From an uncultured Gammaproteobacteria bacterium (GTDB lineage Bacteria; Pseudomonadota; Gammaproteobacteria; Ga0077536): 64,000 nt of DNA. This document shows positions 11,587 to 14,778 of the stretch, in pieces. The notes beneath the pieces were generated by a model. The model searched no databases. It was not told where the DNA came from and saw only the letters and a program-made list of their open reading frames with translations. The position numbers were made by a program, and so were the translations under genes. Numbering within the stretch: the first letter of the stretch is position 1; each line of letters begins with the position of its first letter. The DNA lies in the NCBI GenBank assembly GCA_938082545.1, contig CALKCL010000019.1, positions 3,914 to 67,913 of the forward strand. Direction: 5' to 3'.

Positions 11587-14500
11587 CTATTTTACAGTAC
11601 TTAACCCAATAGTCACAGCATCGCCACTGATTGTAAACGTGTCGTTCCAAGTACTTGTCTTGCTTTGAAGAGACAAATTGATTTCATCTGCAAGCGTCTC
11701 TCTTTTAATGAAGCCGGTATGTTCTTCTATAGCTTTATAGGTTTCGCCAGCGGTATTAACGTTTACTATAACTCTATCTGTGAGATTAAGATCTGCAGAT
11801 TTGCGCATTGATTGGATGCGGTTCACCAGTTCTCTAGCACAGCCTTGCAGCCTGAGTTCCTCGGTTAGCTCGGTATCAATCGCTATTGTAAGACTACCGT
11901 CCTGCACCACGCTCCAATCGCCGACCTCTTCGCTTATTATTTCAACATCATTAATGTCGATCCGAATGGCTTCTTTATTAACCATTATATTTAATGTCCC
12001 TCCCTCAACCAAAGTACTAATGTCGACTGGGGATAGCTCAGTTATGGAAGATGCCAGCGCCTTCATTTTACTTCCGAATTTTGGACCCAACGACTTGTAG
12101 TTTGCTTTTGCTCTGCGTGTGACAATTCCAGAGGAGCTACTAATGAACTCAATACTCTTTATATTGACCTCTTCAAGAATTATTGATTCCATGGCTTGAA
12201 CACTGCACTCGTCAATATCTGGAGCAGTGACTACAATTAGCCTAGAAAGCGGTTGTCTGACATTTATATTACTTCGATTTCTCAGTAAAAGAACAAGTTG
12301 AACGATTTGTCTCGCAAGACTCATTTTATGCTCAAGGTCAGGCAACTTCCGCCCATCTGTAGTTGCAGGAAACGAGGCACAGTGTACTGATTCGTGGACT
12401 TCTTGAGACGTCAGGTCATTTAGGTTTTTATATAACCAATCGCCAAAGAAAGGTGCGATAGGGCTAATTAATTTGGCCAGCCCTAGAAGGCAATCGTATG
12501 TCGTTTGATAAGCACATTCTTTTTGATGGACAGCATCGCTGTCCCTTCCTCCTTGAGCCACCTGCTTCGCGGACCAAAACCGAGGACGCGACCGCCGTAT
12601 GTACCAGTTGGACAGTTCTTCTACGAACTTCTCAAGCTCACGTGCCGCTCTCGTAACATCATAATTATCGAACGCATGATCAACGGTACCGATTGTCGAA
12701 TCCAAACGACTTAGAATCCATTGGTCAAGCTCACTCCTTTCGCATACCGGAATGACTGTTAATTGATACGAAAAACCGTCAATATTTGCGTAGCTGGACA
12801 TAAAACGATAGACATTTTCGATAGTTCCGAAAAATTTTCCTCTAACTTCGGACAACCCAGATTCAGAAAATTTCATGCTGTCCCATGGGCTGGAGTTGCT
12901 CATCATATACCAACGCACAACGTCAGCTCCGTACTTATTCACTATATCGAAAGGGTTTACAGTATTCCCTTTCGATTTGGACATTTTTTCGCCTTTCTCA
13001 TCTAAAACAAGACCGTTTACTATCACATTTTTAAATGCAACATTCTTTTGAACCAAAGTTGCGATTGCATGCAGCGTATAGAACCATCCTCTTGTCTGAT
13101 CCACCCCTTCGCAAATAAAATCTGCAGGAAAATGCTTTTCGAAAAGTTCTTTATTTTCGAATGGATAATGCCACTGAGCATAGGGCATCGCTCCAGAATC
13201 GAACCAAACATCAAGTACATCAGTTACTCGTCGCATAGTCCCGCCATCAGGCGCCGCCCAGGTGATCTCATCAACGAAAGGACGATGAAGGTCAAGCTCA
13301 TCAGATGTAGTGTTCAAATTAGATTTTTCTCTTAGTTCCGCTATTGACCCTATCACTTCAAAGTATTCAGACCCCTCCTTATCCGAGACCCAAATAGGGA
13401 GAGGAGTTCCCCAGTATCGTTTTCGACTTAACGCCCAATCCACGTTATTTTCTAGCCAATTTCCAAATCTACCATCTTGAATCGATGGCGGGTACCAATT
13501 AATAGTCTTATTTCTTACGACGAGATCGTCTTTTACGGCAGTAGTTTTGATGAACCAACTATCCACCGGATAACTCATTAAAGGAGTACCTTTACGCCAA
13601 TCATGCGGGTAATTGTGAGTATAATTAAGCCGCTTATAGAGAAGTCCTTTCTCTTTAAGATCTCTGATTATTATTTTGTCTGCATCTTTGAACCATAGCC
13701 CACCTACTAAAGGCGTTTCATCGGTAAAGTGTCCGTTCGCGAGAACCGGGTTTACTAAAGGCAGGCCGAGTTTCGCCCCGACTATTGAATCGTCCGCACC
13801 GAATGCTGGGGCTATATGAACGATGCCAGTTCCGTCTTCCACTGTCACAAAGTCAGCAGAACATACTTTCCAACAGTCATTCGTGTACTCAACGGCAGGG
13901 ATAGTGAAGAGCGGAGTATATGCCATACCCACTAATTCTTTTCCTTCTTGCACTCTAATAATTGAGTAATCCTCGTCAGTCAAAATCTTCAAACAATCTT
14001 CGGCAAGAATGAGCTTTTCTCCGCCCATATCGATTGTTACGTACTTCACCCGAGAGTTGATGGCAAGAGAAAGATTCGACATCAGTGTCCAAGGTGTGGT
14101 CGTCCAAACCAATAGATAAGTGTCGTTAGAATCAGCACAAGGGAAGCGAACAAATACGCTGGGATCAGTTACTTCTTTATATCCAAGAGAAACTTCATGA
14201 GACGATAATACTGTCCCCGTTCCTGGGCTATACCATTGTACTTTGTGCCCTTTGTATAAAAAGCCGTTGTCATAAATCTTCTTGATTAGCCACCATACTG
14301 TCTCTATATAATTGTTATGGTACGTGACATACGGATCGTCTAAATCAACCCAGTAACCTATCCTGCGAGTTAACTCATCCCATTCTTTTTTGTAGCGCAC
14401 GACGCTTGCTTTACAAGCCGCGTTAAACTCCTCAATACCAAACGCTTCAACTTCCTCTCTACCGTTCAAACCTAATTGTTTTTCCACTTCTATCTCTACA

Positions 14501-14778
14501 GGAAGTCCATGAGTGTCCCATCCACCCTTCCGGAGGACTTGGTAGCCTTTCAAAGACTTGTATCGACAAAAAGAATCTTTGATAGTACGGCCTACCACAT
14601 GATGTATCCCAGGACGACCATTAGCGGTAGGAGGTCCTTCGAAGAAAGTAAATATTGGAGCAGTCTTACGTGCGTCTTCGCTTTTCTTAAGTATCTCGGC
14701 TCCGTCCCAGAATTCCAGGATTTCGTTCTCGATATCAGGAAGATTTAGGGTTTTTGTTTCGAGGAATTTCTTAGTCAT
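11587..14778 (-). CDS. ileS: Isoleucine--tRNA ligase, type 2 (IleRS2)
   Basis: FFEGPPTANGRPGIHH, GWDTHGLPVE, DWALSRKRYWGTPLP, EGVDQTRGWFY, KMSKS; no C-terminal Zn-finger. Start moved to ATG 14778, just after the sufE stop. Confidence 0.97.
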   Translation of the reverse strand: MTKKFLETKTLNLPDIENEILEFWDGAEILKKSEDARKTAPIFTFFEGPPTANGRPGIHHVVGRTIKDSFCRYKSLKGYQVLRKGGWDTHGLPVEIEVEKQLGLNGREEVEAFGIEEFNAACKASVVRYKKEWDELTRRIGYWVDLDDPYVTYHNNYIETVWWLIKKIYDNGFLYKGHKVQWYSPGTGTVLSSHEVSLGYKEVTDPSVFVRFPCADSNDTYLLVWTTTPWTLMSNLSLAINSRVKYVTIDMGGEKLILAEDCLKILTDEDYSIIRVQEGKELVGMAYTPLFTIPAVEYTNDCWKVCSADFVTVEDGTGIVHIAPAFGADDSIVGAKLGLPLVNPVLANGHFTDETPLVGGLWFKDADKIIIRDLKEKGLLYKRLNYTHNYPHDWRKGTPLMSYPVDSWFIKTTAVKDDLVVRNKTINWYPPSIQDGRFGNWLENNVDWALSRKRYWGTPLPIWVSDKEGSEYFEVIGSIAELREKSNLNTTSDELDLHRPFVDEITWAAPDGGTMRRVTDVLDVWFDSGAMPYAQWHYPFENKELFEKHFPADFICEGVDQTRGWFYTLHAIATLVQKNVAFKNVIVNGLVLDEKGEKMSKSKGNTVNPFDIVNKYGADVVRWYMMSNSSPWDSMKFSESGLSEVRGKFFGTIENVYRFMSSYANIDGFSYQLTVIPVCERSELDQWILSRLDSTIGTVDHAFDNYDVTRAARELEKFVEELSNWYIRRSRPRFWSAKQVAQGGRDSDAVHQKECAYQTTYDCLLGLAKLISPIAPFFGDWLYKNLNDLTSQEVHESVHCASFPATTDGRKLPDLEHKMSLARQIVQLVLLLRNRSNINVRQPLSRLIVVTAPDIDECSVQAMESIILEEVNIKSIEFISSSSGIVTRRAKANYKSLGPKFGSKMKALASSITELSPVDISTLVEGGTLNIMVNKEAIRIDINDVEIISEEVGDWSVVQDGSLTIAIDTELTEELRLQGCARELVNRIQSMRKSADLNLTDRVIVNVNTAGETYKAIEEHTGFIKRETLADEINLSLQSKTSTWNDTFTISGDAVTIGLSTVK

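Follow-up and report, generated by a model that had tools for sequence, protein, structure and literature searches.

A GIHH-type isoleucyl-tRNA synthetase of probable FCB-group origin stands in for IleRS1 in an order of marine Gammaproteobacteria

We report that the ileS gene in the window (the whole 64,000-nt stretch of DNA analysed here, taken from a marine MAG of 2.03 Mb and 88.5% completeness) encodes a type-2 isoleucyl-tRNA synthetase (IleRS2) with the swapped signature GIHH. We consider it highly probable that this single enzyme was gained by the ancestor of the order from an FCB donor, and that ileS1 was lost and the newcomer has been inherited vertically since; its bearers would be intrinsically insensitive to mupirocin. 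In the proposed history, a Rhodothermota/Balneolota-like bacterium (FCB group), whose lineage would already have carried GxHH, donated the gene; the arriving copy would have settled beside an mlaC-like gene, the resident ileS1 would then have been cleanly deleted from the ribF-ileS-lspA operon, and the xenolog would have kept its housekeeping role through vertical descent. Judging from homologous GxHH enzymes that have been characterised, His59 (motif position 3) probably takes over the catalysis done by the first His of the canonical motif, and its predicted steric clash with mupirocin-type inhibitors would make the organism highly insensitive.

The open reading frame present in the window spans 11587 to 14823 on the minus strand. 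The ATG at 14778 was taken as the start, because the alignments of relatives begin at that residue; a 96% identical copy in a further genome has only 11 in-frame codons upstream of it, and a separate gene call on a Logan contig returned an identical 1063-aa product. Both the gene limits and the GIHH codons given in the original prediction were recovered at exactly those coordinates in the translation (Table 1). The product reached 933.9 bits against the NCBIfam equivalog model TIGR00392 (cut-off 621.4), with model positions 4–852 of 861 covered. All class I catalytic and CP1 editing motifs are present, the HIGH-type motif as its GIHH variant, contained in FEGPPTANGRPGIHHVVGR, and KMSKS intact; the segment HDWRKGTPLMSYP occupies residues 392–404. 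In CP1, the Thr-rich peptide WTTTPWT (residues 225–231) and the motif GTGIVHIAPAFGADD (residues 316–330, pattern GTGIVHxAPxxGxDD) each align with the structure 8c8w. The product is an isoleucyl-tRNA synthetase of type 2 with an HUP-2 catalytic domain, and in all probability the only one of the cell and essential.

Table 1. Features of the ileS locus, in window coordinates
Feature	Coordinates	Strand	Basis
Gene for a periplasmic lipid-binding protein of the MlaC family, 34 nt past the end of ileS	10932..11552	-	PF05494
ileS, sole isoleucyl-tRNA synthetase, type 2 (IleRS2), 1063 aa	11587..14778	-	TIGR00392, PF00133, PF08264, PF19302
Type-2 C-terminal domains (PF19302/DUF5915), residues 865–1057, where IleRS1 has its zinc-binding domain	11608..12186	-	Pfam
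Anticodon-binding helical domain (PF08264), residues 685–845	12244..12726	-	Pfam
KMSKS loop, canonical, residues 598–602	12973..12987	-	translation, alignment
Editing (CP1) domain core	13789..14106	-	translation; alignment of both motifs with 8c8w (P. megaterium IleRS2)
GIHH, swapped class I signature (canonical HxGH), residues 57–60, within GPPTANGRPGIHH	14599..14610	-	translation, alignment
sufE, separated from the downstream ileS start by 7 nt, no terminator predicted in between	14786..15271	-	PF02657
cysS (cysteinyl-tRNA synthetase), 16-nt overlap with the sufE start	15256..16641	-	annotation

We assigned the enzyme to type 2 because it has the PF19302 C-terminus, lacks the zinc finger and CxxC, and is nearer to IleRS2 structures in its catalytic domain. 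The PF19302/DUF5915 match covers model positions 2–190 of 195, no zf-FPG_IleRS match was obtained with Pfam, and a scan of the whole 1063-aa translation found no CxxC, in contrast to the IleRS1 of one comparison genome, which ends in CVRC...CGRC. The type-2 C-terminus without a zinc finger that had been proposed from the sequence is thus borne out. Among PDB entries, IleRS2 structures (8c8w, 1ile) matched with E-values of 1e-275 to 1e-255, 8c8w being the best at 2.6e-275, while IleRS1 entries (8c9f, 1ffy) reached only about 1e-112; in the tree, a branch with support 100 parts the window enzyme from IleRS1. The best solved-structure match, Priestia megaterium IleRS2 8c8w, aligned over residues 16–1032 and reads GPPTANGLPGVHH in its HIGH region. 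As its aligned motif is GVHH, we take it to be the structure of the engineered P. megaterium mut-GVHH IleRS2 with Ile-AMS from PMC10485003; 8c8u and 8c8v are further entries for this protein. The P. megaterium enzyme naturally has HVGH and accompanies an IleRS1, whereas the window enzyme is naturally GIHH and the only copy.

The gammaproteobacterial IleRS1 (E. coli type, from the ribF-ileS-lspA(-fkpB-ispH) operon) serves the same cellular function, yet is only about 30% identical to the window enzyme and has HIGH together with a C-terminal CxxC zinc-binding domain. A second ileS, including one in the ribF-ileS-lspA slot, had been named as a thing to look for. The search of this 88.5%-complete genome found none, its further matches being only ValRS (contig C14, about 87.7–90 kb) and LeuRS (C14, about 19–21 kb); relatives that are 100% complete likewise have no second ileS, and an IleRS1 query against 24 IleRS2-bearing Gammaproteobacteria recovered only their IleRS2 loci. 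The frame of the IleRS1 operon survives in this genome minus ileS1: on contig C33 the gene order is murJ-ribF-lspA-ispH and ribF shares 14 nt with lspA, where relatives that keep IleRS1 have ribF-ileS-lspA. The slot is vacant in all eight tested genomes of the window's order. In the other IleRS2-bearing families ribF abuts lspA (0–250 nt) in all except f221, whose locus showed no lspA. The three marks of xenologous replacement, i.e., conflict between gene and organism phylogeny, absence of the native copy and deletion of the native locus, were all observed.

GIHH carries the Gly/Ala at position 1 and the His at position 3 by which the hyper-resistant subgroup is recognised; that subgroup is further marked by a mupirocin Ki exceeding the canonical IleRS2 value about 100- to 1000-fold. 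The swapped signature is real, as originally proposed, but it does not set this gene apart: G[IVL]HH was found in all 107 clade IleRS2 whose aligned sequence includes the motif, and GxHH in 86 of 163 bacterial IleRS2, about half (Brkic et al., 2023, PMC10485003). The entire FCB-plus-Gamma IleRS2 clade is fixed for GIHH. The tested natural G/AXHH enzymes are those of Deinococcus radiodurans (ALHH) and Streptomyces griseus (Brkic et al., 2023, PMC10485003; Modrusan et al., 2026, PMC13752280). The window enzyme resembles them in its intact KMSKS, type-2 C-terminus and housekeeping role; unlike them, it belongs to an FCB (Bacteroidota/Rhodothermota) sub-clade within a gammaproteobacterium, and its resistance is predicted from homology. 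The natural D. radiodurans enzyme has a mupirocin Ki of 6.6 mM, which reversion to HVGH lowered 823-fold, while introduction of GVHH raised Ki about 200- to 430-fold (PMC10485003). Hyper-resistance of the window enzyme may thus reasonably be expected; its level is uncertain because the GxHH enzymes measured so far span Ki values from 35 uM to 6.6 mM, and neither PMC10485003 nor PMC13752280 reports a mupirocin Ki for an FCB-clade IleRS2.

What selected the replacement, and how large the effect is, are separate matters from the identity of the enzyme. It is possible, although we think it the less probable course, that GIHH is a historically fixed, near-neutral state, that IleRS1 was replaced without antibiotics, by chance or because slow-growing oligotrophs tolerated a slower enzyme, and that Ki is perhaps only moderately raised. 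The invariance of the motif over several phyla whatever the habitat speaks for this, as does the lack of a catalytic trade-off in natural GxHH enzymes (PMC10485003). IleRS1 has moreover been linked to faster aminoacylation (PMC13752280), so the choice of type may follow growth strategy. No inhibitor-biosynthesis genes were seen among the annotated neighbours of ileS (the genome otherwise being searched for synthetases and ribF only). Against it stands the finding that in every GxHH enzyme tested, natural or engineered, the motif alters Ki 200- to 800-fold (PMC10485003). This account concerns selection and magnitude and is compatible with the acquisition from an FCB donor that we favour; inhibitors may have had a part in selecting the replacement.

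The window's GTDB order comprises 81 species in 18 genera and one family. A matching IleRS2, 54–96% identical to the window enzyme, was found in 74 of the 81 species, and none of these 74 genomes has an IleRS1. Gammaproteobacteria as a class normally carry IleRS1 with GPPYANGxIHIGH, as the original prediction held: the motif was present in 8/8 IleRS1 loci taken from other families, an IleRS2-level match occurred in only 19 of 400 evenly sampled genomes and was lacking in the other 381, and about 95% of the sampled families carry IleRS1 only. One IleRS2 clade is common to the window's order and to six or more other gammaproteobacterial families, in each case as the only copy, while the tree indicates that family f225 gained its GIHH enzyme separately from that clade. 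We regard it as rather unlikely, though worth stating, that FCB-derived GxHH IleRS2 displaced IleRS1 repeatedly, or spread laterally, in these at least seven mainly marine/oligotrophic families under recurrent marine selection by mupirocin/thiomarinol-type IleRS-targeting products and not by chance.

The origin of the gene was examined with trees from a 'quick'-mode run, in which SH-aLRT was the only measure of branch support. In the IleRS2 tree the order forms one clade (SH-aLRT 99) within a gammaproteobacterial IleRS2 clade, which in turn lies within Rhodothermales, Longibacter and Balneolaceae, with Bacteroidota and after them Ignavibacteria as the successively wider groups (supports 95–99). 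The Rhodothermota/Bacteroidota-like source suggested beforehand agrees with this placement; on the tree, the source looks Rhodothermota/Balneolota-like. The node joining all 28 gammaproteobacterial GxHH sequences has a support of just 81. Within the order, the internal split in the IleRS2 tree agrees with that in the RpoB tree (a single-gene tree, weak as a species tree), which argues for vertical inheritance. The proposed horizontal replacement is thus sustained by the FCB nesting and the missing ileS1, and the phylogeny makes the gene xenologous; it is not this genome's own event, however, since it is common to the whole order and at least six further families and was inherited vertically within the order. 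There is little chance, in our judgement, that IleRS2-GxHH is instead ancestral here, with two ancestral paralogs differentially lost and the FCB group having received its copy from Proteobacteria, or with no transfer at all. The same vacant ribF-lspA slot in several IleRS2-bearing families would fit such a history, as would the pairs f1+f204 and f227+f52, which group together in the IleRS2 tree as well as in the RpoB tree and indicate that part of the spread was vertical. Yet the Gamma clade lies several nodes deep among FCB sequences that branch in line with FCB taxonomy, and an AU test, for a group named after the tree was seen, rejects FCB monophyly without the Gamma sequences (p = 9.4e-5). 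The prevalence of families with IleRS1 only weighs in the same direction, and mapping IleRS2 onto the RpoB tree takes at least three changes, with f210 placed among IleRS1 families.

The probably FCB-derived gene now sits, as the original prediction had it, in a housekeeping setting, the co-directional cluster cysS-sufE-ileS-mlaC-like. The sufE-ileS linkage also occurs in genera g1, g6, g9 and g14, and in most of the order's full-length loci and genera that were sampled ileS remains linked to the mlaC-like gene. A promoter and terminator scan over 9000–18800 gave counts no higher than in shuffled sequence and so carries no information on the limits of operons. The GC content of ileS (43.0%) is close to that of the genome (43.7%) and GC3 is also at the genome's level; the gene is fully ameliorated and the transfer is old. 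The mobile mupirocin-resistance enzymes of staphylococci, MupA (IleS2) and MupB, are likewise type 2 and their models align well over the full length, but membership (NF000257, NF000258) was rejected, at 917 and 849 bits; unlike them, the window gene lies on the chromosome, occurs throughout the order, and is neither mobile nor additional to another ileS. A recent horizontal gain by this genome or genus, for instance of such a plasmid-borne determinant, is therefore most improbable: the rarity of the gene type in Gammaproteobacteria and the MupA score could be cited for it, whereas both scores fall far under the cut-offs of 1900, the gene is found throughout the order with ameliorated composition and conserved synteny, no mobile-element genes occur among its immediate annotated neighbours, and it is the sole ileS of the genome.

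A literature search returned nothing relevant on an earlier IleRS2 transfer into Gammaproteobacteria. Enzyme type, motif and mechanism are already known, as the GxHH swap and its effect have been published and mapped over nearly 100,000 IleRS sequences, and the practical weight of the finding is modest. It provides a well-documented example of an aminoacyl-tRNA synthetase that was replaced in the distant past, with a donor clade, an operon deletion scar and order-wide retention in marine Gammaproteobacteria, and it predicts that the order would be intrinsically insensitive to mupirocin-class IleRS inhibitors. If recurrent marine selection did act, replacement of the target would amount to intrinsic resistance as a lineage-defining trait among abundant bacteria of the sea.

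We took the ATG at 14778 as the functional start of ileS since the alignment of all relatives begins from that residue, the open frame of the 96% identical copy in genome G002 extends just 11 codons upstream of the start, and an independent gene call (Logan contig, another run) gave the identical product. The protein scored 934 bits against TIGR00392 (ileS, NCBIfam; cut-off 621) and contains the Pfam domains tRNA-synt_1 and Anticodon_1, with DUF5915 (PF19302) matched over its full length at the C-terminus. No Pfam match to the IleRS1 zinc-finger domain was obtained, and CxxC is absent from the entire 1063-aa sequence. 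The translation around the signature is FEGPPTANGRPGIHHVVGR. The original observation of a GIHH motif in a type-2 isoleucyl-tRNA synthetase (IleRS2) was thus borne out in every detail by translation, Pfam and NCBIfam. Identity with MupA or MupB was rejected, as the respective models gave 917 and 849 bits, far under the 1900 cut-offs. The closest solved structure was 8c8w (E = 2.6e-275), with GVHH in its HIGH region, consistent with the Priestia megaterium IleRS2 carrying engineered GVHH (PMC10485003), whereas IleRS1 structures reached only ~1e-112.

Features of the window's ileS, its product and the adjoining gene junctions
Feature	Position or size	Strand	Remark
ileS ORF	11587..14823	minus	confirmed as real reading frame
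ileS functional start	ATG at 14778	minus	product of 1063 aa
GIHH	residues 57-60, 14599-14610	minus	read from translation
KMSKS	residues 598-602		read from translation
WTTTPWT, editing domain	residues 225-231		intact
GTGIVHIAPAFGADD, editing domain	residues 316-330		intact
HDWRKGTPLMSYP	residues 392-404		window's IleRS
cysS/sufE	overlap 16 nt
sufE-ileS	gap 7 nt
ileS to mlaC-like gene	gap 34 nt

A six-frame search of the window's assembly (2.03 Mb, 40 contigs, 88.5% complete) for a second ileS found none; one copy is present, the remaining matches being ValRS and LeuRS. The canonical position of gammaproteobacterial ileS1 is between ribF and lspA. Mapping of IleRS1-flanking ORFs from eight other families onto the genome located this slot at 8409-12431 of contig C33 (locus L117), where the gene order is murJ-ribF-lspA-ispH and both ileS and fkpB are missing. 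As ribF and lspA overlap there by 14 nt, no space is left for ileS and the native gene was cleanly excised; L117 is the scar of the lost ileS1. Direct adjacency of ribF and lspA was found in 8/8 tested genomes of the window's order, and the 24 genomes with IleRS2 that were examined all lacked IleRS1.

The nearest sequences beyond the order formed two groups: other Gammaproteobacteria (families f204, f210, f174, f52, f227 and f221 and an 'Oceanococcus sp.' MAG; 50-61% identity) and Balneolaceae, Longibacter and Rhodothermales (53-55%), followed by Ignavibacteria (48-50%) and Bacteroidota (43-47%). In an IleRS2 tree of 67 sequences (IQ-TREE, LG+C20 PMSF, quick mode, IleRS1 root), 28 gammaproteobacterial enzymes formed one clade (support 81), nested within, in turn, Rhodothermales, Longibacter and Balneolaceae (supports 95-99), with Bacteroidota and then Ignavibacteria as the next outgroups. 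The AU test, applied to a group chosen after the tree had been inspected, rejected the best tree in which the sequences of the FCB group (Bacteroidota/Rhodothermota) make up a clade without the gammaproteobacterial ones (delta lnL 181, p = 9.4e-5). The nesting and the rejection indicate transfer from FCB to Gammaproteobacteria, so that the guess of a Bacteroidota/Rhodothermota-like source was right.

The GTDB order of the window contains a single family, in which 81 species are divided among 18 genera. IleRS2 matches (54-96% identity) were detected in 74 of the 81 genomes, those lacking one being incomplete MAGs, and an IleRS1-type match in none of the 81. The order is a single clade in the IleRS2 tree (SH-aLRT 99), and its basal split (G015 and G016 vs. 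the window, G023 and genus g6) is the same in the RpoB tree; ileS has therefore been passed on vertically within the order. The GC content of ileS is 43.0% (GC3 40.2%) vs. 43.7% for the genome, with similar values for its neighbours. The exact sequence was found in one marine metagenome and near relatives (about half of sampled words shared) in many seawater metagenomes; the organism is accordingly a planktonic gammaproteobacterium of the sea with a small genome.

ileS belongs to a run of genes in the same orientation, ahcY / cysS-sufE-ileS-mlaC-like / xdhC-like / mobA-like. Consensus promoters and terminators scanned for over 9000-18800 were no more numerous than in shuffled sequence and gave no information on operon boundaries. 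An MlaC-family gene downstream is linked to ileS in most sampled loci of the order, and sufE-ileS linkage was seen in four genera. Members with larger genomes (L013, L014, L017, L019, L020, L024) carry, next to the ileS-linked copy and in the opposite orientation, another MlaC-family paralog that has diverged from it (~31% identity); the window's genus is without this paralog. Downstream of the cluster, window 8181-10861 (minus strand) encodes XdhC-family, MobA-like nucleotidyltransferase and JmjC_2-domain (cupin oxygenase) proteins, the first two consistent with molybdenum-enzyme loci elsewhere in the window. No inhibitor-biosynthesis genes were present beside ileS in the annotated neighbourhood, which is unlike a producer's self-resistance gene.

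In IleRS2 the signature-motif helix is shifted, so that a His at position 3 fits without displacing adenine; its N-epsilon substitutes for the canonical first His, and this His is in steric conflict with both the ring and the nonanoic tail of mupirocin (PMC10485003). DrIleRS2, with natural ALHH, has a Ki of 6.6 mM, lowered 823-fold by reversion to HVGH, and in the enzymes of T. thermophilus and P. megaterium the introduction of GVHH raised Ki ~200- to 430-fold, to 35 and 460 uM (PMC10485003). The window's enzyme would share the catalytic arrangement of characterised GxHH enzymes and is probably strongly insensitive to mupirocin-class inhibitors, to an uncertain magnitude because measured GxHH enzymes range from 35 uM to 6.6 mM.

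Across the class, IleRS2 was found in only 19 of 400 evenly sampled genomes, and GxHH enzymes in eight families. One of the eight is f225, whose GIHH IleRS2 (G317, L128; 45% identity) pairs in the tree with a sequence from Anaerolineales (support 96) and lies outside the main gammaproteobacterial clade, suggesting a separate transfer. Three small-genome (1.2-1.6 Mb) families, f171 (G250, G412), f201 (G280, G436) and f37 (G116), carry at L129-L133 another kind of IleRS2, which is eukaryote-like and has the canonical motif HHGH (GPPFATGLPHHGH); it shares 35-40% identity with the window's enzyme and is likewise the only ileS. On the RpoB tree the window's family f1 pairs with f204 and f227 with f52, as in the IleRS2 tree; f210 falls among families with IleRS1, so that a minimum of three changes in the trait is required. 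RpoB itself varied in length (L185-L188): in G015 (f1) and G283 (f204) it exceeds the window's 1357 aa in length, an additional ~57-68 aa interrupting the match at ~residue 429; G444 and G289 (f210) also have longer frames (1390 and 1398 aa), with the match listed from residue 428 on. The match is unbroken (residues 1-1356) in the window's genome, G016 and G023, and the long form is patchily distributed. For IleRS2, the comparison of the two trees suggests a single ancient entry and then a combination of vertical inheritance, loss and lateral spread inside the class, at a resolution limited by the single-gene (RpoB) species tree. That IleRS inhibitors selected for repeated displacement of IleRS1 among marine Gammaproteobacteria seems improbable.

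G[IVL]HH was present in 97/97 IleRS2 covering the motif in the first alignment (from the window's order, the Oceanococcus MAG, one further Gammaproteobacteria MAG, Rhodothermales, Balneolaceae, Ignavibacteria, Bacteroidota, a Zixibacteria MAG and an Anaerolineales MAG) and in ten further distinct gammaproteobacterial sequences; all eight IleRS1 of that alignment had HIGH. G/AXHH was reported in 86 of 163 bacterial IleRS2 (Brkic et al. 2023, PMC10485003), and 'GIHH' is restricted to HUP-2 enzymes in a database of 97,678 IleRS sequences (Modrusan et al. 2026, PMC13752280). The original interpretation is supported in part: the enzyme is a GxHH xenolog from an FCB donor, but its transfer is old and shared by the whole order, and its motif is common to the clade and was described before. 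GIHH is not special to the window's gene; it was inherited from the donor lineage and is no local adaptation.
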